Source of the DNA: a virus
Taxonomy: Duplodnaviria; Heunggongvirae; Uroviricota; Caudoviricetes
Virus record (IMG/VR): IMGVR_UViG_3300017565_000017
Location: 192,779 to 242,859 of that record
Direction: 5' to 3' (one strand)
Length of the DNA stretch: 50,081 bases
Both the position numbers and the translations under genes were made by a program. The notes beneath the pieces are model-generated. The model was not told the origin of the DNA and searched no databases. It was given only the letters and a program-made list of their open reading frames with translations. This document shows positions 2,733 to 50,081 of this stretch, in pieces (the stretch's first letter is position 1; the number at the start of each line of letters is the position of its first letter).

Positions 2733-2743
2733 AAATCTCCACC

Positions 2744-3930: not shown

Positions 3931-4266
3931 TTACGGTTTCGTTTCCAGCGGTTGGATATTAAATGCGTCGCGGATTGTCTGTGTCAGTGAAGCCTTGGAC
4001 ACGGAACAGACTTCCCATACGCCAACCATATTAGATACCCACTCAACTACCTGACCTTCCTGGAGCCGACCACTAGGGCCGGGGGCAGGGGGCCGGGGTA
4101 GCGGCGGACACGGGGCCAGCAACGATTCCTGGATGCGTACAGTATGCTTCTCTGGAACGACTGGCTGCTCAGGATTGCGGGGTGTAGTCTCACATGCAGT
4201 TAAGACGTAGGCGAAAGCTACAACAACTAGAATCCGCAGTATAATTCGATCTAGAGGAAGACTCAT
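3931..4266 (-). CDS. o-spanin (Rz1-like lipoprotein)
   Basis: Signal peptide with lipobox LTA-C, Pro-rich region, directly downstream of the i-spanin. Confidence 0.8.
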   Translation of the reverse strand: MSLPLDRIILRILVVVAFAYVLTACETTPRNPEQPVVPEKHTVRIQESLLAPCPPLPRPPAPGPSGRLQEGQVVEWVSNMVGVWEVCSVSKASLTQTIRDAFNIQPLETKP

Positions 4267-4703: not shown

Positions 4704-4705
4704 AA

Positions 4706-6348: not shown

Positions 6349-6359
6349 AGAACCTTCTA

Positions 6360-6746
6360 TTAGTGAATCTTAGTCTTAGGGACAGGGGTCGTGCTAATTA
6401 GCGGACGGCCTTTAATGGTGCCTCCCATGGACATCGCAAAATCGATTGGGTTCTCAATATTCACATCACCGCTGCATAGTTGCTGGGCCATGAAGTTAAG
6501 AACCTCATCGATACCATTCTGGGACGTGTCATACACAACGGCATTGAATAATTCCTCCGAATATGAAACCACGTCCCCTTCGACGTGTTTCGGGGCGCAT
6601 TCGGCAAGAACAACACTGAATGTATGTGGACGCAGTTCAATAGCGGCCAGCATGAATACACGCTGTTCATCCGTTAGGAACAGCGTGCGCTCCGCCGACT
6701 TAAACAGGCGAAACTTGCTCTTTACGCGCTTTCTCTTCTTGATCAT
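6360..6746 (-). CDS. hypothetical protein
   Basis: 128-aa ORF, GAGG RBS, overlaps polymerase end. Confidence 0.65.
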   Translation of the reverse strand: MIKKRKRVKSKFRLFKSAERTLFLTDEQRVFMLAAIELRPHTFSVVLAECAPKHVEGDVVSYSEELFNAVVYDTSQNGIDEVLNFMAQQLCSGDVNIENPIDFAMSMGGTIKGRPLISTTPVPKTKIH

Positions 6747-12392: not shown

Positions 12393-13990
12393 AACTCGAT
12401 GCTCAATTCTTTGGCCTTACTGGCGCTTTTACCGCTGAGATACGCTTTCAATGTCACTAGGTCTGGGTTGGAAATAGTAGGCTTGAACACCTTCCATATA
12501 CACCCCCACCATTCGTTACGCAAACACGCACGACGAGCGTTAGTGTCATCAAGGAAGATACGGAGCATAGGAGGGGGTTTGTCCTCATAGGGGGTAAGTA
12601 CACGGCTAACCCGCTGCTCGCAGTTCTCCAGATTGGAAGACATTGCAACATCATAGATAGCAGACGCACGCGGGATGTTGACGCCGGTACTCACCAGCTT
12701 GGCACCTCCTACTAGAATCTTCACCTTGTAGGACCGGGCAGCTTGAATGAGGTTCTCGCGCTCCTCACCCTTAACGTTGCCGTAGAACGGATGAGCCAGC
12801 TTCTTACCTGCCAATTTGTTAATCTGCTCGACGATCTTATCAATGGCCTTGACACGGGTCAGGGGAATGATAACCATGTGACCCTGCTCCACATCCTTTA
12901 TAGCCCACTGAGCGATGAGCTTAATGCGCTTCTTATCGTTCTCGAGCTTAGTCACCATGTTGACCCACTGCGCTTTCTTGTTATGGTCAACATACTCGGT
13001 GCGTACCAGACGCACGGTGGGCTTTAGACGCTCGACCTCAGCCTTGAACACAATAGGGCCAATCAGTTGGTGCATGATGGCGTGGCGTTGGTCCTTACGA
13101 GTAGGTGTACCCGATAGTCCCAGAATGTACTCCGCATTAAGCGCGGCCAGAACTTGGCTGAACTTAGGGGCAGCACTCGTATGGACTTCATCCACGATAA
13201 CCACGCTAAACATATTCTTCAGCTTCTTGAGCAGACGCAAGCCATTCTCAGAATACAGGCTCTGAACAGTAGCCAAGCATACGTCATGACGCTGGAAATC
13301 CTCTAGCGTTTTGCAGAAACCCACAGACGCACGCTTCTTGCCACTCTTCCAAAAAGCGCGGCGCTCAGCCGCAGTAACACCGGAGCCAATCGCGTTAGTA
13401 AGAGCAGGCTGAGACGCCGAACCACAAAAAGTTTCATAGAATCCCTTTAGCCATTCGGCCTGAACTGTGACGATAAGAGTCTTCAGACCCAAAGTGCAGG
13501 TAATCGCACTGCCGATAACGGTCTTGCCGCTTCGTGGGGGTGCCTTAATCACACCTTTCTTGGCTGCAATAAATGCGTCGTGGGCCTCCTTCTGGTAGGG
13601 GCCGCGCCATGTTCCGTTGAACTTGATTGGGCGCTTGAAGCGGGTCACCTCGTGGTCAGGGTGTTTGTTAACCCACGTGGGTAACTGCACATCCGTTAGA
13701 ACGCCTGCACGACGCAGGTTACGCACTAAGCCCTTCCGATCCCCCACTGGAAAGCGAATATACGCTTTCTCGTTTATCTTAACGTTCTCAGCCAGCCGTG
13801 CTCCGCCCTGGTAGGCGGCGCAGTTATCGCACACACCTTCCACATGGCGTTCTGGCTGGTATTCACATTTGTCACATGCCTTCTCTTCGTAAAAACGAAA
13901 AGTGTATGCGTCAATAAGTTCCTGACGCGCTTCCCTTCCCTTGATATCCTCTTTACGGATAAAGAATGCTTCACGCTCAAATACTTTCAT
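12389..13990 (-). CDS. superfamily 2 DNA helicase (UvsW/T5 D10-like)
   Basis: APPRSGKT, DEVH, SGT, TGVNIP, QRVSRV; N-terminal CxxC..CxxC. Confidence 0.9.
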   Translation of the reverse strand: MKVFEREAFFIRKEDIKGREARQELIDAYTFRFYEEKACDKCEYQPERHVEGVCDNCAAYQGGARLAENVKINEKAYIRFPVGDRKGLVRNLRRAGVLTDVQLPTWVNKHPDHEVTRFKRPIKFNGTWRGPYQKEAHDAFIAAKKGVIKAPPRSGKTVIGSAITCTLGLKTLIVTVQAEWLKGFYETFCGSASQPALTNAIGSGVTAAERRAFWKSGKKRASVGFCKTLEDFQRHDVCLATVQSLYSENGLRLLKKLKNMFSVVIVDEVHTSAAPKFSQVLAALNAEYILGLSGTPTRKDQRHAIMHQLIGPIVFKAEVERLKPTVRLVRTEYVDHNKKAQWVNMVTKLENDKKRIKLIAQWAIKDVEQGHMVIIPLTRVKAIDKIVEQINKLAGKKLAHPFYGNVKGEERENLIQAARSYKVKILVGGAKLVSTGVNIPRASAIYDVAMSSNLENCEQRVSRVLTPYEDKPPPMLRIFLDDTNARRACLRNEWWGCIWKVFKPTISNPDLVTLKAYLSGKSASKAKELSIEL

Positions 13991-35548: not shown

Positions 35549-37753
35549 CTATAGTTCCGGTTTGAAGAAAGAATCGCCCGCTTTCCAGCGGCGCTCGAAC
35601 TGCACTTCACATAGCTTTATTTGGTCGGCCAGGGCAGACTCTAGGGTCTTCAAATCGTCCCTTAAACGGTCTTGGTCGTGAGAAGCACGCTTTTCCGCTA
35701 ATCTGCGTTTTAACGACACTATTTCCTTGTATTGTGGGATCTTCTGGATCAGGAACTTTTTCTTAGCGGCAAACTTAGTACCCCGTTTCTTAGTCGCCAC
35801 CGGATTTCCAGCCTGACGCTTCTGGAACTTGAGGGCGATGATCGAATGGAGATTGCGCAAGTCCTTAGTGTCTTCCTTGGTTAGCCCATTCCCAATTCCA
35901 AGATTCCCAATGTCCCAGGGCTCAATGAGGGTCGGAAGATCGGAGAATCCAAACTTCTTAACGTTTTCTGCACTAGCCTTATCTGGCAAGATCAGTAGTC
36001 GGTATGCGTCCATGTCTGGAACACGAATGCTAGATCGTGTTAAGGACTGCACTGCTTGGTCCACAAGGTGGTCTAGATCTGAATTATAGGAAGGACACAG
36101 GGCTTCCATAACTGTCTTGGCCCCTGGATGTGGATTAACGCTCGCCAGGAAGGCAAACACGTGATGCTCAATGTAAGCATTGGAACCTTGGCTCTTAAAC
36201 GGAACAAAGATAATGTCGTCGGCCCCAAATTTCAAAAGCTCTGCTTCACGTTCATAGCTACCATCCCCGACGTTAATCGTAGCCAGCAATGGAGTTGGAT
36301 CGTAGTTACCCTGAGCCTTGTTCCACGCTCGATTTATGTCGACACTACGCTTCAGTAGGTACTGGATTGGAGTATAGGGCTGGAGGTCCGGTAGAGTTTT
36401 GATATACGCTATCAGGTCTTCGTTGTTGGTTCGGAATCGAGACGTTCCACTGTAACCCTTGACCTTTGCTATACCGCGAATGAGATTCCGCAAGATATTG
36501 GGCTTCAGTCCAGCACCGGGGGCTGCATTGAGTTCCATAAGTCCAGAACTCCACAGATCCAGGTTGTCTCCAGGCTCCGGACGCACCACGATCCCATTGT
36601 CCAGGAGTCCCATACTGAGCTTCGACTGACCGGCGGACGCATACGTTATATAAGCCTGGGACCACGCTCGGCGTAACGCACGTTCCTGGATCTGGATGGA
36701 CGGCACACGCTTTTGCTCCAAATGGATAGGGCAGTCGATGTCTTGGATACGACGTTCAAACAAATCGTTGTCTTCCCCGTCCAGAGGTTCGTATCCGGAT
36801 AATCGTAGCATGTGGAACATTTGAGTGTTTTCCAGACGTGCTGCCATGATCGTAACGGTCTTCCATCCGTAAAACACCCGGGCTGGATCCAGAACGGTTT
36901 GGAGCTGTAAGGTGCATGTCCGTGGATTATACTGAGCCTGGCCCATAACACGGACCGCTGACCCGTACACGTGTTCCATAACCCTCTTCAGGTCTTTAAA
37001 CATGCGATCGACCTTTGGAGTGAGTCGATATTGAGCTACGTAGGACTGGAGCGCGTCGTCCAGTTCCTTGCGGGTCAATTTGGACTTGATCTCAATGGGG
37101 GTCCGAGCTTCATGGAGTTCTTGGAGGGGTAGGAACTTGCTGAGCACGCCTTCCAATTCCGGGGGCAAGATCATCTGCTCGGATTGTAGTACGCATTTCT
37201 GGGCTTCGTCAAAGATGACGCTCACGCGTTTGCGGTTAGGGAGCAATGATTTTCCATTTTCCTTGTAGCCGCTGTCCAGGCGTAAGAATGTCTCGTGGGC
37301 CATCATAATGACGGTTCCGCGCTCCAGCTTGGGTACTTCTATGTTGTTGATCCTTATGGACTTGGACACGGCACGCATCAACACCTTGGCTACTTCGCGC
37401 AGCGTGTTGAGTCCCAAGCTCTTCTTTAGGTCGTCGTTGATCTTGAAGATCCGAGGATGGAGGGCTGGGTCGACTCCCATACGAATTTTGTGCCCGATCT
37501 CGTCCAATAGTTTGTGTGTCGGGGCTGTGTAGATGGTGACTCCACTCCCGGTACGGATGCGATTCTGGATCACGCGGATGGCCCAATGGGTTTTACCTCC
37601 GCCGGGGAGCGATGACAGGTAATGTATAGTCTGTGGATGACCGTCTATCGAATAGAGGGGCATGATGTTCCAGTTAGTAAGTCCATGCAGGCTATTAACG
37701 GTATGACGTTTAACGGATTTTGTTAACGGAGGTCCGTTAAACGAGCGCAACAT
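35549..37753 (-). CDS. SF2-helicase-like protein, candidate origin-binding/initiator (true start may be 37663)
   Basis: PGGGKT, APTHKL, IFDEAQ, C-terminal Q..TRS..R; abuts repeat-rich non-coding DNA. Confidence 0.6.
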   Translation of the reverse strand: MLRSFNGPPLTKSVKRHTVNSLHGLTNWNIMPLYSIDGHPQTIHYLSSLPGGGKTHWAIRVIQNRIRTGSGVTIYTAPTHKLLDEIGHKIRMGVDPALHPRIFKINDDLKKSLGLNTLREVAKVLMRAVSKSIRINNIEVPKLERGTVIMMAHETFLRLDSGYKENGKSLLPNRKRVSVIFDEAQKCVLQSEQMILPPELEGVLSKFLPLQELHEARTPIEIKSKLTRKELDDALQSYVAQYRLTPKVDRMFKDLKRVMEHVYGSAVRVMGQAQYNPRTCTLQLQTVLDPARVFYGWKTVTIMAARLENTQMFHMLRLSGYEPLDGEDNDLFERRIQDIDCPIHLEQKRVPSIQIQERALRRAWSQAYITYASAGQSKLSMGLLDNGIVVRPEPGDNLDLWSSGLMELNAAPGAGLKPNILRNLIRGIAKVKGYSGTSRFRTNNEDLIAYIKTLPDLQPYTPIQYLLKRSVDINRAWNKAQGNYDPTPLLATINVGDGSYEREAELLKFGADDIIFVPFKSQGSNAYIEHHVFAFLASVNPHPGAKTVMEALCPSYNSDLDHLVDQAVQSLTRSSIRVPDMDAYRLLILPDKASAENVKKFGFSDLPTLIEPWDIGNLGIGNGLTKEDTKDLRNLHSIIALKFQKRQAGNPVATKKRGTKFAAKKKFLIQKIPQYKEIVSLKRRLAEKRASHDQDRLRDDLKTLESALADQIKLCEVQFERRWKAGDSFFKPEL

Positions 37754-37859
37754 AATTTTCTATAGGCGTGTTACGGACTGACAACGGAACCAGAGTGTAA
37801 TACTGGAACTGCTCAAAAAGTGTCCGTTAAACGAGCGCAACATAATTTTCTATAGGCGT
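37732..37859. repeat. 38-bp perfect direct repeat, 2 copies
   Basis: GTCCGTTAAACGAGCGCAACATAATTTTCTATAGGCGT at 37732-37769 and 37822-37859. Confidence 0.95.
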
Positions 37860-38818
37860 TTAACTGACGGGTTACGGACTACGTCCATGGTACGTAACGT
37901 TCATAGACTGGTAATACAACTGTTTTAAAAAATTTTCGTGGCGCAGCGTAGCGAGCAACGCACGGAGGCCGAAGGCCGACGTGTGTAATGGACACACAAC
38001 ACACTGTCCACTTCCTAGATAATTGGAGGCGGATGTTTTTGTACAAAGTTCCCGGCTTCCAGTCGCTGCGCTCCTTACCGCCGGGACCAACCTCCCTTCG
38101 GTCGGCGTTTTTGTAAGATAAGAGAAAGACCTAGAACCTAGGACTTAGACCCACAATTACACCTCCAATTACTCACTCTACACGGACTCTAATTCGGGAT
38201 AAAATCGGGGCTCCGGCGCTTACCCATGATTACCCCTTACTCACCCTAAAATTCCGTTTTTTACCGTCATTTCTATATCTACCTCTTTACCCCTAACTAA
38301 CCTCTACTTTACCTCTATCATAGGTTCTATACTTCTACTGGTTCTTGTCTATTACAGGTGTGTTCCAACTCCTATCTCTTTACGTACTGTGCCATACCCA
38401 AAATTTTTTAAGAACCACTTATTACCCATGTATCTCATTACCCTGTAGTCTAGGTCTTACACCTATTCTACTTGAGCTAGGAACTGGAACCGGGTACTGT
38501 CATGGGGCGCTCTGCGCCCACATTCAGTTGTAGGTTCGAGGTTCCAACCGGGTCCGGGTATAGGTGCTAACTCCATTTGAGCTAGGGTCTAGTTCCATTT
38601 CCTAGTTCTGAATCTTATTATCTGCGGAGATCGTTTGACTCCGAATTAACTCGGATTTTGTCGGTTTAACTCTTGTTTTTGTCACCCTGTGTATGGGTTA
38701 TATGTCCTGTGTATGAACGGGGGTCTGTGTAGTTCTGAATTGGCTACTGAGGGGGTGGGGTAGTTTTAGGTCCGTACATTGCTTACCTGGGTCTTGTGGT
38801 GTACGGGTCTATGCTTTG

Positions 38819-38892
38819 TCCAGTGTCCTTGGTCATGGTTTCCAGTGTTGTTCTATATCTTGCCCTGGTTTCCAGTGTTGTCCCAGTGTCCT
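38819..38892. repeat. CCAGTGT repeat cluster
   Basis: TGGTTTCCAGTGTTGT at 38836 and 38866; CCAGTGTCCT at 38820 and 38883. Confidence 0.85.
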
Positions 38893-39049
38893 GTTCGTCT
38901 TATCATGACGACTCCACGAACGGAGTCGCTTCGGGGTACTCACCTTCCTCCCCCTTTCACAGATATTACCCGACTCTTGTATTACTTCTTGGATCTTGGA
39001 TTGGAAGGAGCTACGGTGCTCCCATGACTTTTGACTGCGTCAAATGATA

Positions 39050-39093
39050 AAAGGCCGGTTAGGGGCTTAAACTACAAACCCTAACCGGCCTTT
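39050..39093 (-). terminator. 15-bp perfect inverted repeat downstream of kinase gene
   Basis: AAAGGCCGGTTAGGG / CCCTAACCGGCCTTT. Confidence 0.6.
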
Positions 39094-39144
39094 GTTATAC
39101 AACCCTAACCGCTACGGGTTAGGCTCCGGACTTGTTAACAAGTC

Positions 39145-40437: not shown

Positions 40438-40509
40438 TGCAGCATCCTATAAGGGTTTGTGAATGGGGATGAAATTGGGATCCACCCCTACACCTTATTT
40501 ACGATTTCC

Positions 40510-40770
40510 GCACCTGCTCCTGCTCCTGTTGGAGTAGGGTCTTCTGCTGCTTCTGCTGCTGTCGCTGGAGTCATTCCTCCTCTCCTGCTGCTCCTGCAAG
40601 ACTCTCCTGCTGCTGCACCTGGATTCATTCTCCTCTCCTGCTGCTGGAATGGACTCTCCTGCTGCCGCTGGAGTCATTCTCTTCTCCTGCTGCAGAATCA
40701 GATCTCCTGCTGCTGGAATGGACTCTCCTGCAGATCTCCTGCTGGATCTATCTCCTCTCCTGCTGGAATT
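40510..40770 (-). repeat. degenerate tandem CAGGAG repeat tract
   Basis: 12 CAGGAG copies on the minus strand; 29-bp exact repeat at 40634-40662 and 40703-40731. Confidence 0.9.
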
Positions 40771-41090
40771 GAGTCCGAGTCCTAGATCTAAGACCTGGAT
40801 CTTCGTCTCAGATCTGGGATCAGGATCCTCCTCCTAGATCGCGGAGAGCGACTCCGTCTCCCTGAGAGTCTACGTCTCTCCTGGATCCTGATCCCAGATC
40901 TCTGTCAGGGATCCCGGTCATGGGCGTCTATCATGGACGTCCAAGATTCCCCCTGGCCCGATCGCCGTCTGAATATTCAGATCTACGATCACCATGTGGG
41001 ATCCTGCTCATTGCTCCTAGATCCTGCTCACAGAGGGAGACTGGCGGCAACTGGATCTAGTGCATTGGACCGCGGAACTGGATCAGGGTC

Positions 41091-41492
41091 TTAGATCGTG
41101 GACGGGGACTCCTCTTCGGTAGAAATGTGGATCTGACCCAGGAGCTTGACGAGGCGAATGAATGGCTCGTGCAGTGACTCTGGGATGATACTCGCGTTCC
41201 GCTGAACACGCGCCGCATAGTGGCGGGCAGGCAACGGAAAGGAGTGGGGGCGCAGCATCGCTGCTTGTGTGTCGTGCAGATCTTGCAGCCAGTTGAGGAG
41301 CTTGACGAAGTCCTCTTCTGTCTTGTTCTTGATCCACAGATTGAATTCGTAGATTTCCCAGCTATTAAGCCACCGCTCGTCCTGGCGCAGCACGGCAAAG
41401 CGCTCGCGCAACAGGTCAGAACTGAGGCAACTGTGACACCGCTGCATGAACTCGGTGCCTAGTCTGTAGCTGTAGTCGTGATGTACGGTCAT
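41091..41492 (-). CDS. hypothetical early protein
   Basis: Likely start MTVHH at 41492, below a sigma70 promoter. Confidence 0.6.
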   Translation of the reverse strand: MTVHHDYSYRLGTEFMQRCHSCLSSDLLRERFAVLRQDERWLNSWEIYEFNLWIKNKTEEDFVKLLNWLQDLHDTQAAMLRPHSFPLPARHYAARVQRNASIIPESLHEPFIRLVKLLGQIHISTEEESPSTI

Positions 41493-41531
41493 CAATAACA
41501 AAACCCTAGGGCCACAATTGGCCCGGGTTGC

Positions 41532-41560
41532 ATTATGCACGGTTTTAAAAGGGGGCGCAA
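41532..41560 (-). promoter_or_regulatory. sigma70 promoter (leftward)
   Basis: TTGCGC-17-CATAAT. Confidence 0.7.
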
Positions 41561-41607
41561 CTCCTTGTATTACTCCGACTTTTTGCAAAAACGGGGCGGC
41601 TCCCAGT

Positions 41608-41636
41608 TTGCTATTTTTGCGCCCCCGTGCTATATT
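41608..41636 (+). promoter_or_regulatory. sigma70 early promoter
   Basis: TTGCTA-17-TATATT with extended -10 TG. Confidence 0.8.
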
Positions 41637-41688
41637 AAGGGCTGGCTAATACCCCTAGCCAGTAACCCTAACCGTAAAGGCAAACCGT

Positions 41689-42315
41689 ATGTCCCAGACC
41701 CTTGTTCCCCTGTCCCGCGATCAGATCATCGCTCACTACGTCTCCCAGTTGGGTAAGACTCAGGGTGTGGATCGAGGCCCGGACCTCCCTGTCGTGCCGT
41801 ATGTGTGCGCGTTCTTCGCTGATCTCATGTCCGGGGATTGCGATTCCTTCGAACCCTTTGATGAAGCTCGCCACGAGGTTCCGTTTCCGAAGTACTCGTA
41901 CCTCGCACTCAATGCTCTCGTGTCCGGTACTCTGCCTATCAACTCTGAGAACGACGAGGATGTCGAATGCCTCTGGGATAACGTCGATTACTTCGACGGC
42001 ACTCTCGGCTATTGGGCTGCTTCTGTTCAGGACTCGAAGCATCAGCCTCAGCCCGAAGCTCTGGCGGATCTTGAGATCTGGCTTCGGGAAGACCCTCTGG
42101 TTCGCGCTCCGTTGCTTGCCCGCTTCGTATGGTTCAACTCGGATTACGAGCAGGCGGAAACGCACGGTCGAGATCGAGAGTACGACATCAATGCCGATAA
42201 CTACGGCGAGTTCTATGGCCCGGCTCCAATGTCTGCCGCAGAATCTGCAGCGGCTATCCCGGAAAATCTCCACGAAGTCACCATCGACATCTACGAATTG
42301 GCCTGCAACGACTAA
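41689..42315 (+). CDS. early hypothetical protein, paralog family A
   Basis: 208 aa after promoter; shares motifs with the 42418 ORF. Confidence 0.8.
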   Translation: MSQTLVPLSRDQIIAHYVSQLGKTQGVDRGPDLPVVPYVCAFFADLMSGDCDSFEPFDEARHEVPFPKYSYLALNALVSGTLPINSENDEDVECLWDNVDYFDGTLGYWAASVQDSKHQPQPEALADLEIWLREDPLVRAPLLARFVWFNSDYEQAETHGRDREYDINADNYGEFYGPAPMSAAESAAAIPENLHEVTIDIYELACND

Positions 42316-42334
42316 TCCCTGACCCGCCCGGGGG

Positions 42335-42363
42335 TTGCGCGTAGCGCGCCCCCGTGTTATATT
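42335..42363 (+). promoter_or_regulatory. sigma70 early promoter
   Basis: TTGCGC-17-TATATT, extended -10. Confidence 0.8.
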
Positions 42364-42417
42364 TGTGTACGGCGTAACCCCGCGCCCTAATGCCCTAACC
42401 GTAAAAAGGTACACCGT

Positions 42418-42948
42418 ATGTACGACACTACCATGATCCCCCTCCAGAATCTGCCCTGGCTTTCTGCGTTTATCCAGGACCTGTTCCCACCCGATGGTAG
42501 CGCTGGGGACGGGGAGCTGGATTACTTCGACGAAGCTGCCCGCGAAGCCAAGCACACCCCGTTCGTGTTCCCGCTGTTTATGTCCCTGATCCAGGGCAAG
42601 AACCTGCCTCCCACTGACTATATGTACGCTAAACATATGTACGTCACTCACACGGAGGCCGAGCTCCAGCTCCTAACTGAACTCAATGTCTGGTTGTCCC
42701 GGGATATCAGCCATGCTGTGTTCCTTGCCGAGTTCCTGTGGTACTCTTCGGATTATTGTTGGATTGAATTGCACGAGGTTGAGAGGCCCGAGGTGTATGA
42801 AGATTCGGAGCCGGAACCTGGGTCTATCCGTCGGTACAAGTACACGGGGGCGGGGCCGACGTCGGCTCCTATCTTTGCCTCTCTGGTCCCCCAGAAGTTC
42901 CATGCGATCATGGGGCGTTGGTTCACTCAGATGTGCTACTACGGGTAA
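42418..42948 (+). CDS. early hypothetical protein, paralog family A
   Basis: 176 aa; FDEA, L.VWL..D, LAEFLWYSSDY, GPTSA. Confidence 0.8.
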   Translation: MYDTTMIPLQNLPWLSAFIQDLFPPDGSAGDGELDYFDEAAREAKHTPFVFPLFMSLIQGKNLPPTDYMYAKHMYVTHTEAELQLLTELNVWLSRDISHAVFLAEFLWYSSDYCWIELHEVERPEVYEDSEPEPGSIRRYKYTGAGPTSAPIFASLVPQKFHAIMGRWFTQMCYYG

Positions 42949-42958
42949 GGGGCGTAAC

Positions 42959-43492
42959 ATGGGAACTTCTGCATCCATTATCTGCCACACTGGCTCCTAC
43001 ACGTGGGCTAACGACGTTCACTACGATGGTGACCTGTCTCACGTGGGTCTGCTCTTGGTCAACGCGTACCCCCGTCTTGAGGTCATTCAGCCCCTGGTCC
43101 ACGGCGGTTCCATGTCGGGCCTCGCCGCCATGTCTGGTTATCCGGCCCTCGATGATGACGATCGCGAGAAGATGCGTATGGCCGAGATCATGCGCACTCA
43201 CCATGATCGTCCCTACATGAAGAATCTGGTCTCGGTCTATTACCACCGAGACAAGAAAGAGCCTTGGGACCTCTGCAAGTATCGCACGTACAACTCGCTG
43301 GCCGAAGCGATCAAGGGTGAAACCTGCGACTATGTGTACGTGTGGCATGAGCCGACTCAGCGTTGGTATTGGGCGAATTGCGAGCAGCATCCTCGGTCGC
43401 TGACATCCAAGATACTGGCTGCTCGTCAGCCCGTGGTTGGTGTGCCTCTGTCCATTGCTTTGGAACACCAGCGTAAGAGCCCAGGCGCGTAA
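42959..43492 (+). CDS. conserved-type phage hypothetical protein
   Basis: Start MGTSASI; H.DG....VG..L...Y and CDYVYVW motifs typical of a widespread phage family. Confidence 0.75.
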   Translation: MGTSASIICHTGSYTWANDVHYDGDLSHVGLLLVNAYPRLEVIQPLVHGGSMSGLAAMSGYPALDDDDREKMRMAEIMRTHHDRPYMKNLVSVYYHRDKKEPWDLCKYRTYNSLAEAIKGETCDYVYVWHEPTQRWYWANCEQHPRSLTSKILAARQPVVGVPLSIALEHQRKSPGA

Positions 43493-43505
43493 CGCTACAT
43501 GGGGC

Positions 43506-43534
43506 TTGCGCCCCCGCCCCCACTGCTATATAAT
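43506..43534 (+). promoter_or_regulatory. sigma70 early promoter
   Basis: TTGCGC-17-TATAAT. Confidence 0.85.
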
Positions 43535-43588
43535 GTGGTACGGGCTACCCCTGGCCCTAAGTAAACCCTAACCGTATAGGCTAACCCC

Positions 43589-44215
43589 ATGTCCCTCCCT
43601 CACTTCAATCCGAACACGGCCGACGTCAGCAACGTGCGGGGCGTCCTCATGAACGCGCTCCGTACGTCGGCAGCCCTGGACCAGGAACGTGCGTATTCGA
43701 CGATCACTCATGTTCTGGCTATTGCCCAGGACGTGTATGAGATTCGTCTTCATGAAATCGAGCGCATCGTTGCCAGCAGCGCCACGAATGCCATCCAGGT
43801 GTTCCAGTACATCACCCGTGCTCTCGAGTCGATTCGCAACGAGCGGTGGGAGCTGCCGAAAAACGAGCTGGCTCCGACCCATTCGTACGACACGTACCAG
43901 CTTACTCGGCTCACGATCCTTCTGTGCAACATCGTGGCGCAGGACATTCCTGTCGTTGGTCTGTACCAGCGCCATTATGAAATGGTGCCTCTCATGGATC
44001 GCTACTACATTCTGCGGGCTAATCTCGTTCGGCTCAATGCGGAGTTCGACGAACTTGAGCAGAAGTCGGATGGTGATGATGATGCTGATGAGGAGGCCAT
44101 GGAAGAAATGCGCCCGTTCATCACCCCGATCTATGACGCTGTCGAGCAGATGCGTTTGCACCTGAACAAGAAGTTGGGTTTCGTCGGCGTCGAGATTCAA
44201 GGCGCTGCCTTCTAA
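43589..44215 (+). CDS. early hypothetical protein
   Basis: 208 aa between promoter and terminator. Confidence 0.8.
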   Translation: MSLPHFNPNTADVSNVRGVLMNALRTSAALDQERAYSTITHVLAIAQDVYEIRLHEIERIVASSATNAIQVFQYITRALESIRNERWELPKNELAPTHSYDTYQLTRLTILLCNIVAQDIPVVGLYQRHYEMVPLMDRYYILRANLVRLNAEFDELEQKSDGDDDADEEAMEEMRPFITPIYDAVEQMRLHLNKKLGFVGVEIQGAAF

Positions 44216-44258
44216 AGAACCTGTCAGGGTGGGCCAGCCGGCCCCATCTTGATCTTTC

Positions 44259-44283
44259 GGGGACCTTCGGGTTCCCTCTTTTT
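44259..44283 (+). terminator. intrinsic terminator
   Basis: GGGGACC-TTCG-GGTTCCC then TCTTTTT. Confidence 0.85.
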
Positions 44284-44284
44284 G

Positions 44285-44331
44285 GACTCCAGGTCTAAGA
44301 TCTTCGTCCTAGATCTAAGAGAGCGACTCCG
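44285..44331 (+). repeat. 47-bp GA/TC-rich intergenic box
   Basis: Near-identical to 47141-47187; 3' half also at 40836-40856. Confidence 0.85.
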
Positions 44332-44361
44332 GTCCGGAGGAAAAATAAATGTGTGGCGGGG

Positions 44362-44390
44362 TTGCGCCCTAGCCCTTATTACGCTATACT
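44362..44390 (+). promoter_or_regulatory. sigma70 early promoter
   Basis: TTGCGC-17-TATACT with upstream A-tract. Confidence 0.85.
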
Positions 44391-44443
44391 TTAGTTAATG
44401 GCTAACCCCGGCCAGTAAAAGCCCTAACCGTATAGGCTACCCC

Positions 44444-44851
44444 ATGTCCCAAGCTACCCTCCCCGAGATCGTCAAGGTCTTCATCAGCGAACCCCACGGC
44501 GAAGACTACGTTCCGGATCCGGCGCGTGTCGACGCCATCGTTGCTCGCGTCGAAAAGCGTATCCCCGCCCCCAAAATCCAGCAAGCACTCGACTGGATCA
44601 ACAACACTCCCATCGCCGACCCCTCCGGTAAGTCTGGGGATAAACTCCACTGGTCAATGTATTGCATCAGTGGGTTCGGTATGCCTCCCCATCCGTGGGT
44701 TCCCTTCGAACTTCAAGACGAAGTGGCTTATCTACTCGTAAAGATTTTCAATTGGGTGTGCTTCACGGATCTGTCGGGCACGCTGCCCCGCCCCGCCACC
44801 TTCGGTCAAATCCGTAAGGTTTATCGCGAAGCCATCGGCCTCGACTTCTAA
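44444..44851 (+). CDS. early hypothetical protein
   Basis: 135 aa. Confidence 0.75.
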   Translation: MSQATLPEIVKVFISEPHGEDYVPDPARVDAIVARVEKRIPAPKIQQALDWINNTPIADPSGKSGDKLHWSMYCISGFGMPPHPWVPFELQDEVAYLLVKIFNWVCFTDLSGTLPRPATFGQIRKVYREAIGLDF

Positions 44852-44860
44852 GGATCGACC

Positions 44861-45205
44861 ATGCACATCACCAATCTGTATGTCATGGCCTCGATGGCTA
44901 CCCTCGGCCACCACGAGGGTCTCGAGGCTACTGTCCGTGATCTTCATGCCATCGCCAAGGGCTACGAGTCGTGGGACCACTACCACGCCTTCGGTTCTCA
45001 GCCGGTGGATCCCTCGATCCTGGATACCAATCACGCTAACTTCGAGATTACCATCAAGTGCGTGGGTGAAATCCAAGGCCAGATTCGTTATCACCTGTGG
45101 TACGAAGCTCCAGACATTGGGGCTATGAGTTCGGCTACCAAACGAATCACCATCTACACCGACCTCAATGGTCTGGTCGCTAACGTGGAGCTCGACAATG
45201 TCTGA
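44861..45205 (+). CDS. early hypothetical protein
   Basis: 114 aa, AAGGA RBS. Confidence 0.75.
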   Translation: MHITNLYVMASMATLGHHEGLEATVRDLHAIAKGYESWDHYHAFGSQPVDPSILDTNHANFEITIKCVGEIQGQIRYHLWYEAPDIGAMSSATKRITIYTDLNGLVANVELDNV

Positions 45206-45572
45206 TTCTAACCTCATCGAACAACTGCTGGACAAGGATCTCTGGATCTTGCGGGCTCTGGTGCTTGCCTACTACCGGGGCGCACAATCGGAATCCGAAT
45301 GGGATCCGCAGGACGCCATCGGCACTGCTGCCTTCGCGCTGAACCATGCGTCGAACACGACCGGCATTGGCCTCGTGTGGGTCAACCACGAGCTCCGCGC
45401 CCCCATGCTGTTCCTGGACTGCCACCGCTTGCTCGAAGCACTCGGTGAAGCGGAACTCGTGGGCGAAAGCGCCCCCGTGCCTCAGGTCCTCATCAATCGA
45501 GTGCCTCACGAGCTTCACCTGTTCCTCACTCACTTCATCGACGCGTCTACGGGGTCACCGTCGAAAGAGTAA
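45198..45572 (+). CDS. early hypothetical protein, possible distant family A paralog
   Basis: Start MSDSN with GGAG RBS; RAPML and VP.ELH motifs. Confidence 0.7.
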   Translation: MSDSNLIEQLLDKDLWILRALVLAYYRGAQSESEWDPQDAIGTAAFALNHASNTTGIGLVWVNHELRAPMLFLDCHRLLEALGEAELVGESAPVPQVLINRVPHELHLFLTHFIDASTGSPSKE

Positions 45573-45595
45573 AAACCGGGGGCGCTGGCCCCCGT

Positions 45596-45624
45596 TTTAC
45601 ATTGCGCCGCCCCCGTGTTATACT
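45596..45624 (+). promoter_or_regulatory. sigma70 early promoter, overlapping a terminator hairpin at 45576-45598
   Basis: TTTACA-17-TATACT, extended -10. Confidence 0.8.
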
Positions 45625-45656
45625 TATTACCCTAACCCTAACAACCTGGAAAAACC

Positions 45657-46643
45657 ATGGCCGACTCCAAATCCCCTATCGAACAGCTCCTGTCGGCGCT
45701 CGATAGCGACAGCGAGGTTCAAACCCTCCGCGTCGAGGGTAACAACCTCGAAGAAGTGCTCCAGAACCTGCGCCAGCAAGCGCCGGAAGGTATCCCGCCG
45801 GAAGTGCTGTCGGCGATGGAAAACATCATCCGCAAGAAGTTCGGCGAGCGCGATTCTGCTTCCCATTCGGGCAAGTCCAAGGTCCCGGTCATCGACCACT
45901 GGACCGAGCAGGAGCGCGATATGTTCGTGTCGACCCTCAGCGCCCTGTTCAACAACCTGGGCCGCTACGATCCGGACCTCGACAGCCCGGAGATCGTTAA
46001 CAAGGGCATCGCCCATCTGGTGTTCTGCCCGCAGTGGGACCCGGAAAAGGTGCGCCCCCTGATCATCTGGATGCTGGAGAACCCGGCACGCATCCCCAGC
46101 ATGATCAACGTGATGAACACGTTCGTCCACGGGCTGGCCTGCAAGTTCCCCATCCCCTCGGTGGAAGACCTCAAGCTCAAGGATGAGCTGGCGGAAGACC
46201 GCGCCCTCGACATCACCCATCCGGCCATGCTGCATCTGGCCGAAACCATCATGGACCACGTGGACAACGCCTTCCACGAAGGCAACATGATTGCGTCTCT
46301 GCTTTCCTACGCGGTGCCCGACGCCTACGTGCTCAACGGCACGTGCAAGGACCACGAGGAGGCAGACGCTCGCTTCGACAACGAGCGCATGACCACGGTG
46401 GTCAATCAGCTTCTCAAGGACGAGACGCTGTCGCCCCATGCGGCCAATACCGCGCTCTACAGCACGACTGTCGCCCTTCCGGCCAAGATGTATCTCATTG
46501 CCCGCGCTCTGGGCAACGATTCGACGGTCGAACGCATGACTGGCCGTCTGCCGGATACCGTGGTCAAGGTCCTGGATGCTGCCGCGCTTCTGTGCTTCGG
46601 CGTCAAGGCCATCAAGGGCAAGAGCGACACGGTGCTCCACTGA
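45657..46643 (+). CDS. early hypothetical protein
   Basis: 328 aa, strongly G/C-ending codons. Confidence 0.85.
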   Translation: MADSKSPIEQLLSALDSDSEVQTLRVEGNNLEEVLQNLRQQAPEGIPPEVLSAMENIIRKKFGERDSASHSGKSKVPVIDHWTEQERDMFVSTLSALFNNLGRYDPDLDSPEIVNKGIAHLVFCPQWDPEKVRPLIIWMLENPARIPSMINVMNTFVHGLACKFPIPSVEDLKLKDELAEDRALDITHPAMLHLAETIMDHVDNAFHEGNMIASLLSYAVPDAYVLNGTCKDHEEADARFDNERMTTVVNQLLKDETLSPHAANTALYSTTVALPAKMYLIARALGNDSTVERMTGRLPDTVVKVLDAAALLCFGVKAIKGKSDTVLH

Positions 46644-46666
46644 CCTAAAGCTGCACTAATTACCCC

Positions 46667-46692
46667 GGGGGCGCGCTGTGCGCCCCTTTTTA
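46667..46692 (+). terminator. intrinsic terminator
   Basis: GGGGCGC-GCTGT-GCGCCCC then TTTTT. Confidence 0.8.
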
Positions 46693-46756
46693 TTTGCGCA
46701 CGTGTACACGGTTTACAACGCCTAAAAATATTTTTATTGTTTTACACGTTAGGGGG

Positions 46757-46785
46757 TTGCACAAGTGTATAACACGCCCTATAAT
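46757..46785 (+). promoter_or_regulatory. strong sigma70 promoter with AT-rich UP element
   Basis: TTGCAC-17-TATAAT. Confidence 0.9.
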
Positions 46786-46878
46786 ACATACATGGATCGC
46801 AAAACAGCGAACCTAACCTAGCAAACCGGGCATGGTGCCCGGTAGTAAACCTCCCACTGTAGGGAAAGGAGAAGTTCC

Positions 46879-47088
46879 ATGACCACCCAAGCCCAAGCCC
46901 CCGCCAAGAACCTGAAGCCCGTCAACGTGCTGAAGTACGTCGTGAACGGCGAAGCGAAGACCGAAAACTACACGCGCTTCTCCGAGCTGGCGAAGCGCCA
47001 GTCCGAGCTCCTGAAGGACGGCGTGTCGGTCACCATCGAACCCCGCATGGGTGAAGTGAAGACGCAGGTCTCCATCGTCCTCGACTAA
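46879..47088 (+). CDS. small, probably highly expressed early protein
   Basis: 69 aa, AAGGAG RBS, extreme codon bias, own promoter and terminator. Confidence 0.85.
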   Translation: MTTQAQAPAKNLKPVNVLKYVVNGEAKTENYTRFSELAKRQSELLKDGVSVTIEPRMGEVKTQVSIVLD

Positions 47089-47115
47089 CCGTCGGCGGTC
47101 GCCATGGCAGTACCG

Positions 47116-47140
47116 GAGGGCCGCGTGGCCCTCTTCTTTT
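47116..47140 (+). terminator. intrinsic terminator
   Basis: GAGGGCC-GCGT-GGCCCTC then TTCTTTT. Confidence 0.85.
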
Positions 47141-47187
47141 GACTCTAGGTCTTAGATCTGAGTCCAAGATCGTGGAGAGCGAGTCCG
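47141..47187 (+). repeat. 47-bp GA/TC-rich intergenic box
   Basis: Second copy of 44285-44331. Confidence 0.85.
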
Positions 47188-47221
47188 ATCTTGATAGACC
47201 TAAACAAAGTTACAATAAAGT

Positions 47222-47250
47222 TTTACAGGCCGTTAACGTTAGGTTATAAT
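47222..47250 (+). promoter_or_regulatory. sigma70 early promoter
   Basis: TTTACA-17-TATAAT. Confidence 0.9.
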
Positions 47251-47288
47251 TACTTTACCCCTAACCCTTAGCCGTATAAGGTACTCCC

Positions 47289-47696
47289 ATGTTGCAAACC
47301 CAGACCCCGGTCCAGACCACGAAGCATCGCCGCACCCGCATGAGTAAGCCCACCTCTGTTTTGTCACGTGTTCGTTCTGCTCAGTGGGCCAAGGCCACCG
47401 AGCTCCTGTTCCGGTCTCTCACCAATTCCCGCACGTCGTTCCCTGACGAGGCTTTGGCTCTGACCTACGTTGACCGTGTCATGGAAATCGTTCGGGCCAC
47501 GCCTGCCCGCCAGCTTCAGATCCTCGAGAACTGGCTCAAGTCCCAAGACACCCACATGACGCTCGCTGTCGATTACATGGACCAGCTCTACCGCTTCTCT
47601 TACGAGGGTGGCTTGGTTCCGGTCTGTCGTGATCTGGTGGACCCGGGCGTGCGCCCGTCCCTCAATCAACTCCTTCATCTCAAGGTCCAGCTCTAA
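47289..47696 (+). CDS. early hypothetical protein
   Basis: 135 aa, AAGG RBS. Confidence 0.75.
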   Translation: MLQTQTPVQTTKHRRTRMSKPTSVLSRVRSAQWAKATELLFRSLTNSRTSFPDEALALTYVDRVMEIVRATPARQLQILENWLKSQDTHMTLAVDYMDQLYRFSYEGGLVPVCRDLVDPGVRPSLNQLLHLKVQL

Positions 47697-47727
47697 ACCC
47701 CCTCACAAGACCAGGAGCTGGATTTTT

Positions 47728-47752
47728 GGAGCCTCCCGGGGCTCCTCTTTTT
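47728..47752 (+). terminator. intrinsic terminator
   Basis: GGAGCCTC-CCG-GGGCTCC then TCTTTTT. Confidence 0.8.
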
Positions 47753-47834
47753 GTTTGTAACAAATGGGCTTTACATATAGGTAATATGTTTTACCTAGGG
47801 TTTGCCGGTATAGCCTGTTTATATGGTGTATACT

Positions 47835-48112
47835 GCGTTTGTTGGTTGCTGCCTTGCAGTAACGCAAACGCCCCCCTACAAAGCCCCTAGGGGGCGCGTA
47901 TAGGCCACAAGTTTACGGTAGGGCTGTAGTGATAGCCGGTCAGTGCGACGCAACGTCCACTCGGTATCCGCAGCCCGGTTAGGGGGAGGTTTCTCTAGGG
48001 GTAGAGAACCTCCACTCGGTTCTCAGCGCAGTGATGTGTTGAGGGTATTCGCTTCTCCCGGCGAATAGACGACCCGGTAGCTCTTAATCGAGCTACCGGG
48101 TCGCTGAGTTTT
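47835..48112 (+). ncRNA. candidate structured non-coding RNA
   Basis: ORF-free; seven consecutive hairpins ending in a 14-bp perfect stem and T-run. Confidence 0.6.
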
Positions 48113-48118
48113 TGGCCC

Positions 48119-48147
48119 TTGTTTTTGCTGGGGGCGCATGTTATACT
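48119..48147 (+). promoter_or_regulatory. sigma70 early promoter
   Basis: TTGTTT-17-TATACT, extended -10 TG. Confidence 0.75.
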
Positions 48148-48188
48148 TGTTTTACACCCTAACCCCTAACCGCGTATAGGAGCGCCGG

Positions 48189-48380
48189 ATGGAGAAAGTC
48201 CAAATCCTGCAAGAACTCCAACTCCGAGGCCAAACCCGTCCTGATTCGTGCCCCATTGTCGATGCCATTATCGACATGATCACTGATGACAACAAGTGGC
48301 CTCTGGTCCAGGAGCTGATCCAGCACTGTGCGTCGCCTCAAGATGCGGTCAACTATCTTATGGAGACTCACCATGCGTGA
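48189..48380 (+). CDS. early hypothetical protein
   Basis: 63 aa, AGGAG RBS. Confidence 0.7.
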   Translation: MEKVQILQELQLRGQTRPDSCPIVDAIIDMITDDNKWPLVQELIQHCASPQDAVNYLMETHHA

Positions 48381-48633
48381 ATATGTCGCCAACCCCGTAC
48401 AAGACGCCCTGGACAACATGCCCCCGCTCACGTCGGTGGGCGACTTCTACATGATTCGCAACAAGGTCAGTGGCGAATTCGTCATGCAGGACATGGTCGA
48501 CGAAGGTAAAGTGCCGTTCCTGTGCCACAATGTCCAGACGGCTCGTGCGTGGTTCAAGGCCCACGAGAACCCCGAGCAGGCCAACCTCGACTACGAGGTC
48601 GTCATGGTCGATGGCTGGCGGCTTGAGCGGTGA
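48373..48633 (+). CDS. early hypothetical protein
   Basis: Likely start MREYV, GGAG RBS. Confidence 0.7.
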   Translation: MREYVANPVQDALDNMPPLTSVGDFYMIRNKVSGEFVMQDMVDEGKVPFLCHNVQTARAWFKAHENPEQANLDYEVVMVDGWRLER

Positions 48634-48812
48634 CAGTCTACGGGATTGTCAATCTAATGACCAACAAGTTCCTCATGGACAAGGCTGTGCATTGGCCTGC
48701 CTTGTTCGAAACTGTGGATCTTGCGATGGAGCGACGCCGCAAGCTGTCCGCCCCCGAGTTTTGGTCTGTCGTCCCCATTCCCGTTAACGGCCCTCAAGCA
48801 GACACCGAATGA
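48630..48812 (+). CDS. early hypothetical protein
   Basis: 60 aa, 4-bp overlaps on both sides. Confidence 0.65.
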   Translation: MTVYGIVNLMTNKFLMDKAVHWPALFETVDLAMERRRKLSAPEFWSVVPIPVNGPQADTE

Positions 48813-49216
48813 TTTACGTCCAGGACCTCGACGCATTGCCTGCCGCACTCACCGCGTGGGTCGACGAAACGTCTACTCGCATCAACGCCAATACGCACTT
48901 CCGTTCGGGTGGCGAGAACAATCGTGACTGGGACTGGGAAATCTACGTGCGTCGTACCCGCCACTGCATTCGTGGCAAAGTCTATACGACAATCGATCTG
49001 GCGACTATCGGCGTTATCCCGGCTCTCCGCCGTCAAGGTATCGCCAAGCGCTTGATCGAGATTGTTGAAGCAGAAGCGGCTCGACGTCAACATATCGTTT
49101 ACGTCGAGAACGTCATCAACCCTAACCTAGAACTGTATCTAAGGAGGCGCGGCTATCAGTCAGTACATTTCGATCAGCACTTCGGACCCACCCTAGCGCG
49201 GGATCCCGCCATCTAG
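48809..49216 (+). CDS. GNAT-family acetyltransferase
   Basis: LATIGVIPALRRQGIAKRLI acetyl-CoA motif A; N..L..YL.RRGY motif B. Confidence 0.8.
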   Translation: MIYVQDLDALPAALTAWVDETSTRINANTHFRSGGENNRDWDWEIYVRRTRHCIRGKVYTTIDLATIGVIPALRRQGIAKRLIEIVEAEAARRQHIVYVENVINPNLELYLRRRGYQSVHFDQHFGPTLARDPAI

Positions 49217-49396
49217 TTCTAGAGCAGATGGGGGTGTTGGCAGCCTCCTCCCTACATCGAAAAGATAAACTATTGTCAGTGACTCGGCGTATAGTGGGAC
49301 AGCACGTCAGTAAACCGGGGCCGCACACCGGGTCTAGAATTATTGGTCGGGGGCGCGTAGCGCCCCCTTTGCTTACCCTAACCTACCTCTATCTAC

Positions 49397-49906
49397 ATGA
49401 CTGTCACCTACGAGAAACTTCCCTACGCCTCCGAGCTGGTCCCCGTTACGCCGTGGCTCCCGGACAACTCTGACGAAGATCACGTAGTGCTTCGCCGACT
49501 CTTTACCCGAGAGTGCGATGATGGTGCGTATGCGGTTCTACAGTTGTTTGTTTGCGTCAATGAGGAGCGGGTGTATTCGACGCTTTTGGAAGCGGAACAG
49601 GACGTCTCGTCTATTTCTATGGATGTATCGCTAGAATGTAGCAACGGTGATACGTGGGATTACGTTATGTACGACGCCCCCGCGTCCAAGTTTGCAGGTC
49701 GCCCGATCACGGATGAGAGCCTGGCTGATTGGCTCAATCTTGCAATCGCTCCGTGGGTGCCTCTGGCTCTTGAAGATTCGATTACTGAAGAGATTGTGCG
49801 CAAGGCGCGCTCGGTCTCGGACTACAGCGCAAACACCGACGCTGTGATGTTCCTGTCCGCTGAAGACCACGAGCAAGAAGACGTGGACGAAGAGGACGCG
49901 GGCTAA
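49397..49906 (+). CDS. acidic early hypothetical protein
   Basis: 169 aa, D/E-rich. Confidence 0.75.
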   Translation: MTVTYEKLPYASELVPVTPWLPDNSDEDHVVLRRLFTRECDDGAYAVLQLFVCVNEERVYSTLLEAEQDVSSISMDVSLECSNGDTWDYVMYDAPASKFAGRPITDESLADWLNLAIAPWVPLALEDSITEEIVRKARSVSDYSANTDAVMFLSAEDHEQEDVDEEDAG

Positions 49907-49918
49907 TTTTTAGCCCCC

Positions 49919-49947
49919 TTGCGCCCCCGGGGCTACGGTGTTATACT
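49919..49947 (+). promoter_or_regulatory. sigma70 early promoter
   Basis: TTGCGC-17-TATACT, extended -10. Confidence 0.85.
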
Positions 49948-49977
49948 GGCGTTACCCTAACCCCTAGGTGATACCGT

Positions 49978-50081
49978 ATGGCCCTATTTCTAGCTAATGC
50001 CCTTAACGCCCGTGGTAAACGGGTGTACGCCGTAGTGCGGGGCGACCCCCGTGCCAATTCGGGGGCGGTCGTAGACCAATA
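49978..50081 (+). CDS. early hypothetical protein, partial
   Basis: AGGTG RBS, open frame MALFLANALNARGKRVYAVVRGDP... to the window end. Confidence 0.6.
   Translation, partial: MALFLANALNARGKRVYAVVRGDPRANSGAVVDQ

Follow-up and report, generated by a model that had tools for sequence, protein, structure and literature searches.

Genetic context of the box

The DNA analysed here (hereafter the window) comprises the final 50,081 bases of the 242,859-bp IMG/VR virus record IMGVR_UViG_3300017565_000017, and the element in question is a 47-bp non-coding box, rich in GA and TC steps, that is found between the end of one transcription unit and the promoter of the next in the early region of a phage. 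The family-A DNA polymerase of the source shares 44-52% identity with its counterparts in Achromobacter phage Motura, the Burkholderia phages BcepSauron and BCSR5 and Ralstonia phage phiRSL1, which places the source, on sequence, as an uncultured jumbo phage of the phiRSL1/Motura neighbourhood; near-identical DNA is present in soil, wastewater and manure metagenomes. Jumbo phages of this neighbourhood are little understood, and nearly every gene in their early regions is unknown. In the window, genes up to position 40437, the polymerase and a helicase among them, run leftward, and a rightward block of small unknown genes extends from ~41600, organized in short units with sigma-70-like promoters, a common CCCTAACC-type leader and intrinsic terminators.

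Copies, anatomy and placement of the box

An earlier note made from the letters of the window had drawn attention to two 47-nt strings, and both were confirmed at 44285-44331 (b1) and 47141-47187 (b2). The two copies are identical at 38 of 47 positions, and the terminator stems and promoters that flank them do not align with one another. The junctions are laid out as had been described, each box starting 0-1 nt past the T-run of a predicted intrinsic terminator and ending 10-11 nt ahead of a GA/TC-free run that holds the next promoter (Table 1). The core AGATC-N3-GAGAGCGACTCCG likewise recurs at 40836-40856. The word AGCGACTCCG, which the earlier note had listed alongside these, is indeed present on the minus strand at 38921-38930, but was counted as a chance occurrence and not as a member of the family, because ~0.5 occurrences of a 10-mer are expected by chance in this genome and the profile found no extended similarity there. 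When the whole record (242,859 bp) was searched by nhmmer with a profile of three copies, matches were returned at three loci only, namely b1, b2 and a cluster spanning 40771-41113 (E 1e-11 to 1e-12). Similarly, 8 of the 10 genome-wide matches to GTCYNAGATC fall in these three loci, within 6.5 kb. Of the ~10 promoter tracts on the plus strand between 41.5 and 50 kb only two have the box, as do two of the seven good terminators there; it is not a general part of such junctions. A segmental duplication was ruled out as the origin of the two copies, since the first genes downstream of b1 and b2, which encode 135 amino acids each, are unrelated.

Each box is built of GASTCC, two copies of a 13-bp unit, GTCYWAGATCTnn, and then GAGAGCGASTCCG, and the consensus of eight distinct terminator-linked copies reads GAnTCnAnGTCnnAGATCttcGTCCtAGATCtnnGAGAgCGAnTCC. 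This layout sets out four palindromic cores in the order GANTC-GATC-GATC-GANTC, 13-13.5 bp from centre to centre, and the top self-similarity lag is 13 or 26. The box is also partly self-complementary about its centre (0.62, versus a shuffled mean of 0.41; P=0.002); as read from the sequence of b1, TCTAAGATCT and AGATCTAAGA form inverted arms, matching at 9 of 10 positions, on either side of a 7-bp asymmetric spacer. Several bases outside the GA/TC steps are invariant: the A that precedes each GATC, the G in GTC, and TCC and CGA. The number of 13-bp units differs between loci, with five in 40777-40856, two in b1 and in b2, and three in the ortholog of b1 on the metagenomic scaffold L026. A reading of the box as an RNA element was set aside, the box lying behind a terminator and its sole stem being the trivial pairing of two AGATCT words. 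Rfam covariance models returned no family match to the box (a sub-threshold hit fell elsewhere, at 47673-47752), and a tRNA search found none.

Conservation in relatives

Relatives were reached through the protein encoded upstream of b1, whose metagenomic homologs at 92, 66 and 64% identity lie on contigs that carry the box, and through the kinase encoded beside the cluster (75-79%, 54% and 48% identity), the contigs recovered including some of ~250 kb. Other routes were unproductive: a phage collection searched for close DNA relatives gave no match, protein-seeded scans of viral contigs recovered no relatives, the right end of Motura was not syntenic on comparison, a pattern for the 3' core met only chance matches in coding DNA of viral contigs, and a pattern for the iteron core had 0 matches in viral contigs and 0 in 185,579 species genomes.

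The box proved to be conserved nearly letter for letter, with the core AGATCTTCGTCCTAGATCT..GAGAGCGA.TCC retained, in relatives in which identity of the flanking protein is down to 64-66%. Between paralogous boxes, set in unrelated flanks, identity is 81-90%, and mean information amounts to 1.68 bits per column in the box versus 0.70 in the following 30 nt. As to placement, the box starts 0-2 nt past the T-run in every close-clade relative and ends 20-34 nt before the -35 hexamer. Because the first distance is constant and the second varies, the box appears to be tied to the terminator and not to the promoter. The terminators themselves are probably real, since their orthologs keep stem pairing while the loops differ. 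A third box (b3) was found behind another terminator, ~1.07 kb past the end of the record, in the metagenomic contigs L018, L013, L015 and L026. At this junction terminator and box are near-invariant among three relatives and homology stops 14-25 nt past the box, so that the box would belong to the 3' end of the upstream unit.

In a more distant relative, L023 (kinase 48% identical), the box profile finds nothing. This contig carries instead GA/TC-rich GAGTC-N8-GACTC boxes with the same 13-bp period, located between gene ends and TTGCGC..TATACT promoters, and the same boxes are present in its master region, beside CAGCAGGAG repeats. Over positions 1-9200, this family of its own occupies five junctions plus the master region, some members being perfect 15-bp inverted repeats. 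Place and period kept with the words replaced is what a co-evolving protein-site pair would give; a constraint acting on the GA(N)TC palindromes themselves would account for the pattern too.

GA/TC content of the box

The description of the box as GA/TC-saturated held for enrichment and was overstated as to saturation. Of every 46 steps in the boxes 13 are GA/TC, the genome average being 5.9 (standard deviation 2.1), which places them in the top 0.3% of windows across the genome; AG/CT is enriched in them about as strongly, and stretches coding for acidic proteins reach 16-17 GA/TC per 46. The densest GA/TC loci of the record (genome 165600-165950 and 185150-185800, outside the window) lie inside long open reading frames (ORFs); they are made up of minus-strand GAC/GAA/GAT/GAG repeats, which would fit acidic segments of low complexity in the encoded proteins, and were rejected as related elements. 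Such density is compatible with transcription, since the densest stretches sit in long ORFs.

The idea that the class of dinucleotide is important drew its strongest support from the count itself. The number of GA/TC steps is exactly 13 in each of the eight distinct copies, even though 17 of the 46 columns are variable; when letters were shuffled column by column, the standard deviation of the count was 0.65, and it fell to zero in only 0.2% of shuffles (P=0.002). Changes are compensated, both by the swap of TC to GA in the central spacer that the earlier note had recorded and by that of GAYTC to GGATC at the left end. Counts of AG/CT among the copies range from 9 to 12. Since the copies are few and related, we regard the fixed count as suggestive of a constraint on GA/TC content, not as proof of it.

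Genome-wide, no avoidance of GATC or GANTC was detected (observed/expected 0.87-0.97). The genome has 61 GA/TC-free runs of at least 60 nt, versus 4-11 for AG/CT, AC/GT, CA/TG and CC/GG and 32 for AA/TT, and in the box the GA/TC-free promoters of this phage have a GA/TC-rich counterpart. Within 41493-50044 of the window these runs coincide with promoters and leaders up to the start codon, so that most early genes are devoid of a GGAG-type ribosome-binding site, an exception being a 69-residue gene at 46879 (aaaggagaagttccATG).

The master cluster and the early domain

The third locus is a larger master cluster (b0 and the elements to its right; Table 1), which a 37-nt inverted repeat makes roughly palindromic. 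GATC is concentrated there, with 35 occurrences in 2 kb versus ~9 elsewhere, and iterons, inverted repeat and GATC cluster all lie within a 650-bp non-coding gap near the point where leftward replication genes and rightward early genes diverge.

Table 1 Features of the box system and its surroundings in the window
Feature	Start	End	Strand	Description
430-residue context gene adjoining the master cluster	39145	40437	-	N-terminal 200 residues homologous to 5-hmdU DNA kinase
CTCCTGCTG repeat tract preceding the master cluster	40459	40770	.	Tract-plus-cluster unit present twice, as a direct repeat, in relatives
Master cluster, left part (b0)	40771	40856	+	GAGTCC followed by five 13-bp iterons in tandem, each with a GATC core, ending in GAGAGCGACTCCG (40844-40856); self-similarity significant at lags 13 and 26
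Inverted-repeat right arm	40883	40919	.	37 nt; left arm 40792-40828, 81% complementary
Outlying partial copy	41081	41113	+	GTCTTAGATCGTGGAC..GACTCC at right edge of GATC-rich cluster; profile E 0.019
Intrinsic terminator abutting b1	44259	44284	+	Hairpin 44259-44276 and T-run; conserved jointly with the box in relatives
Box b1	44285	44331	+	GACTCC, 13-bp iterons GTCTAAGATCTTC and GTCCTAGATCTAA, then GAGAGCGACTCCG; profile E 1.2e-12
Sigma-70-type early promoter after b1	44362	44390	+	TTGCGC-17-TATACT, 30 nt past b1, in GA/TC-free run 44341-44447; read from sequence
Intrinsic terminator abutting b2	47115	47140	+	Hairpin 47115-47134; orthologs keep the stem, loop changes
Box b2	47141	47187	+	Paralogous copy, 38/47 identical to b1; profile E 2.1e-12
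Sigma-70-type early promoter after b2	47222	47250	+	TTTACA-17-TATAAT, 34 nt past b2, in GA/TC-free run 47198-47285

The fullest picture was provided by L026 (257 kb). On this scaffold a first cluster (A) lies at ~1050-1380, b1 ends at 4471, b2 at 8222 and b3 at 11646, and a second cluster (B), at ~13240-13450, belongs to a direct, ~70% identical repeat of the unit formed by the CTCCTGCTG tract and the GATC cluster. GA/TC-free promoter tracts run at least 7 kb past cluster B, with zero boxes among them. The three dispersed boxes are thus found only between two GATC-iteron clusters that contain at least five repeats of the 13-bp unit and bound an early domain of ~12 kb; all have one orientation, that of transcription, and box-to-box intervals of 2.9-4.0 kb are kept across lineages. 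The gene that follows b1 is not constant: b1 precedes a 135-residue gene here and a 206-residue gene in L015, and lies between the 135- and 124-residue genes in L026. Because the genes after b1 differ by lineage, yet the spacing is kept, the arrangement suggests that the box serves the domain as a whole and not the control of one particular gene.

The ~300-bp tract ahead of the cluster has the form CTCCTGCTG(CTG), or CAGCAGGAG on the opposite strand, and was found at 40459-40770 of the window, 12950-13240 of L026 and 1339-1650 of L018. In relatives its direct-repeat copies are ~12 kb apart, each ahead of a GATC cluster, and the two ends of the L013 contig share one 19-mer from within the tract. 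Transcribed rightward, the tract would give a CUCCU-rich, anti-Shine-Dalgarno-like RNA, and leftward a Shine-Dalgarno-like AGGAG RNA. Genes for HNH/NUMOD4-type homing endonucleases occur in relatives beside cluster A, between the cluster and the kinase gene (L021 9193-10008), and around cluster B (L026 12466-12948 and 13914-14483); they are absent from this window.

DNA-modification context

The N-terminal 200 residues of the 430-residue protein encoded beside the master cluster match a PaMx11/Ab18-like Pseudomonas phage locus at 33-36% identity (E ~1e-19; weakest hit 30.8% over 169 residues), and the matched locus adjoins an acetyltransferase. That locus encodes the 5-hydroxymethyldeoxyuridine (5-hmdU) DNA kinase of the thymidine-hypermodification pathway (PMC8989533). 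The predicted model of our protein has a polynucleotide-kinase/nucleoside monophosphate (NMP)-kinase fold with a P-loop, so the label of terminase small subunit carried by PHROG 800 and RefSeq homologs was rejected as a mislabel in favour of a DNA kinase, a homolog of the 5-hmdU DNA kinase of PaMx11/M6-like phages. The protein continues in a conserved C-terminal extension of ~230 residues that comprises a small beta domain, a basic helix, a disordered Pro-rich linker and a terminal helix; no DNA-binding fold was recognised in this helical C-terminal half. A thymidylate-synthase-family gene (PF00303 match) lies at genome 191469-191933, and searches for TGT/DpdA, Dam, N6_N4 and D12 methyltransferases found none.

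Conversion of 5-hmdU is stated to be sequence-specific (PMC5889632), and modification is reported mainly at TG in one phage, earlier work being cited for TG or TC sites (PMC13458397). Hypermodification of thymidine in TC context is a reasonable inference for this phage, given the 5-hmdU kinase homolog, the thymidylate-synthase-like gene, the GA/TC-free runs and the TG/TC sites in the literature. The same pair, a 5-hmdU kinase homolog and a thymidylate-synthase-like gene, is shared with the thymidine-hypermodifying phages PhiW-14, M6, ViI and SH-Ab 15599 (PMC5889632, PMC8989533, PMC13458397), whereas modification in the present phage is presumed.

A candidate protein-bound boundary array

The earlier note had offered two interpretations, a densely modified insulator or roadblock and a binding site for a phage protein. 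The latter is the better supported, with iteron-like invariant cores, conservation in relatives and kinship with a multi-iteron cluster in its favour. We propose that the box is a sequence-specific, protein-bound boundary array, a reading on which our confidence is evenly balanced. A specific oligomeric binder is preferred over an effect of composition because paralogs are conserved between unrelated flanks, the palindromic cores are ordered, the box is kin to the cluster and its words are re-specified in the distant relative; fusion to terminators, single orientation and regular spacing in a bounded domain suggest boundary elements. The box would act in cis as the recognition array of an oligomeric DNA-binding protein, probably phage-encoded or virion-delivered, that would mark unit boundaries by binding to the boxes and, cooperatively, to the clusters. 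There the bound protein could reinforce termination, or shield the strong early promoters against read-through and against supercoiling driven by transcription; tethering of boxes to clusters may fold the domain into loops, and the reader may sense the modified or unmodified state of the GA/TC steps.

The last possibility can be extended to a modification-dependent boundary element, in which 13 TC-context thymidines, set in four GA(N)TC palindromes, would be read by the protein in one state only, either in hypermodified parental DNA or in nascent DNA prior to modification. We consider this extension rather unlikely. If it were true, the phage could distinguish injected from replicated genomes and time or confine immediate-early transcription accordingly, and the box would represent the first cis-regulatory code in thymidine hypermodification, with the GA/TC-free promoters as its complement. 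To our knowledge, no cis-regulatory element defined by such hypermodification has been described, and we know of thymidine hypermodifications being discussed so far only as anti-restriction armour.

Several points weigh against the protein-bound array. No binder was found: apart from the GNAT gene, the early proteins scanned gave no helix-turn-helix-type or other Pfam or PHROG family, ParB_N was not found, and a 133-residue protein encoded beside the cluster, all-helical and conserved in relatives, has no family, atlas hit or PDB fold match. The distinct copies behind the statistics of the box number only ~8 and are related by descent. That the box abuts the terminator may be due to compaction alone, this being the sole free non-transcribed slot before the UP element and promoter. 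A bound protein would also stall RNA polymerase before the T-run is reached, so that a roadblock would be redundant with the terminator, and with a spacing of 13 bp neighbouring cores would not lie on the same side of the helix, an unusual arrangement for regulators that are simple dimers.

The array most resembles the iterons of plasmid Rep proteins and centromeres of the parC/ParR and tubC/TubR type, with which it shares fixed-length tandem units, a large cluster accompanied by smaller dispersed sets, and conservation in close relatives with re-specification in distant ones. It differs from them in that no cognate protein and no partition or replication gene was found here, in the palindromic GATC/GANTC core of its 13-bp unit and in the welding of its dispersed copies to intrinsic terminators in a lytic-type jumbo phage. 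The element would be a cis array of the iteron type located in the early region of a phage, and it is unusual in having a fixed GA/TC content in a phage that probably modifies TC. As a conserved and tractable cis site it could lead to the protein that organizes the first-expressed 12 kb, and it may connect dinucleotide-specific thymidine hypermodification to an architecture of gene control made up of GA/TC-stripped promoters and fixed-count boundary boxes. If the box reinforces termination or insulates promoters, it would furnish a compact part for synthetic phage or bacterial circuits.

Alternative explanations

Some of the same evidence could be accounted for without a specific reader, if a patch rich in hypermodified TC-context thymidines on both strands altered the stability, charge or bending of the duplex so as to slow the polymerase and aid termination or insulation. 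Properties of the downstream duplex do influence intrinsic termination; the GA/TC count is fixed through the TC-to-GA swap, and L023 retains GA/TC richness and not the words. The kinase homolog, the thymidylate-synthase-like gene, the 61 GA/TC-free runs at promoters and leaders and the TG/TC hypermodification documented in other phages (PMC13458397, PMC5889632) lend this idea, and the modification context proposed in the earlier note, indirect support. The roadblock by modification density alone was not supported, because transcribed genes carry stretches denser than the box and density therefore cannot by itself block the polymerase. AG/CT is equally enriched, invariant bases fall outside the GA/TC steps, neither the 13-bp order nor the dyad is needed for mere density, and most terminators of the window do without a box (2 of 7 carry one); we judge a density element unlikely. 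Signals for DNA entry or packaging, of the kind of a T5-like injection stop or pause or a P1-like pac, with the ~12-kb domain entering first, are an unlikely alternative that would explain the single orientation of all boxes and the large, conserved, non-coding repeat clusters bounding a domain of variable ORFs. P1 pac consists of GATC-containing hexamers whose methylation controls cleavage, and the GATC-rich clusters of a non-coding control site resemble it in this respect; neither a Dam gene nor an adjacent terminase was found here, the neighbouring small-terminase label belonging to the kinase, and the dispersed terminator-linked copies have no P1 counterpart. The first-step-transfer repeats of T5 (bioRxiv 10.1101/866236) are likewise conserved non-coding repeats and palindromes a few kb apart, in a ~10-kb pre-early block with variable ORFs and with HNH-type endonuclease genes inserted alongside, as in the relatives of our phage. 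The T5 regions are, however, hundreds of bp long and not 47-bp boxes linked to terminators, and their DnaA-box pairs have no equivalent here (no TTWTNCACA past window position 36000), nor was an IHF consensus found near the elements. Contig depth of the domain was 143 versus 120 for its neighbour in one run, a weak indication at ~1.2x and not 2x, and no sign of a terminal repeat was seen.

Junctions at which gene content varies and the box is kept, as around b1, and homology between relatives that breaks just past b3 could also denote recombination sites for cassette shuffling, either through homologous exchange like that at the promoter early stem-loop (PeSL) of T4-type phages (PMC2839356, PMC4122927) or through a lox/dif-like site, to which the 10-bp inverted arms around the asymmetric spacer would lend themselves. 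The likeness to PeSL extends to the terminator-to-early-promoter junction, the plastic early region and the variable neighbours; what PeSL conserves is the stem-loop plus promoter, whereas b1 and b2 share only the box between them, a separate 47-bp element with 13-bp order at three junctions. Neither a tyrosine integrase (PF00589) nor a serine resolvase (PF00239) was found in the record, and the spacer differs between b1 and b2. A 699-nt indel in relatives ends inside genes, with b1 within the missing piece and not at its edge, the longer common promoter and leader repeats would be better substrates for homologous exchange, and three regularly spaced boxes do not amount to one per cassette. 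We hold recombination to be highly doubtful, and equally improbable, in our view, are iterons for the control of replication, with the master cluster as origin or part of one and the dispersed boxes titrating or handcuffing an initiator. The tandem iterons, inverted repeat and GATC cluster in a gap near the replication/early divergence would suit an origin, and two clusters accompanied by scattered sites are likewise a feature of iteron plasmids. None of the genes next to the cluster was recognised as that of an initiator, DnaA boxes are missing from the range searched, GC skew has no turning point at the cluster and GC and AT skew together give no origin signal; the strict terminator linkage of the dispersed copies would moreover go unexplained. 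The protein-bound boundary array, which takes in this linkage together with the ordered cores, is the reading we retain.

Other features of the record

The record ends (window position 50081) within a gene. The first 123 nt of contig L018 (1-6498) are the last 123 nt of the record, and the contig continues for 6.4 kb without joining the record start; the record is therefore not closed, despite a completeness estimate of 100%. The sole early-domain protein with a family match is a GNAT-type acetyltransferase, encoded at 48809-49216 on the plus strand (Pfam E 3.5e-6). To the left of the kinase gene, window 37754-39144 is a gene-free, T/C-skewed stretch of 1.4 kb (AT skew -0.22) with a 57-nt direct repeat (37732-37788 and 37822-37878) and an inverted repeat centred on AAAATTTTTT, and CCCTAACC/GGTTAGG hairpins are located at 39050-39123.

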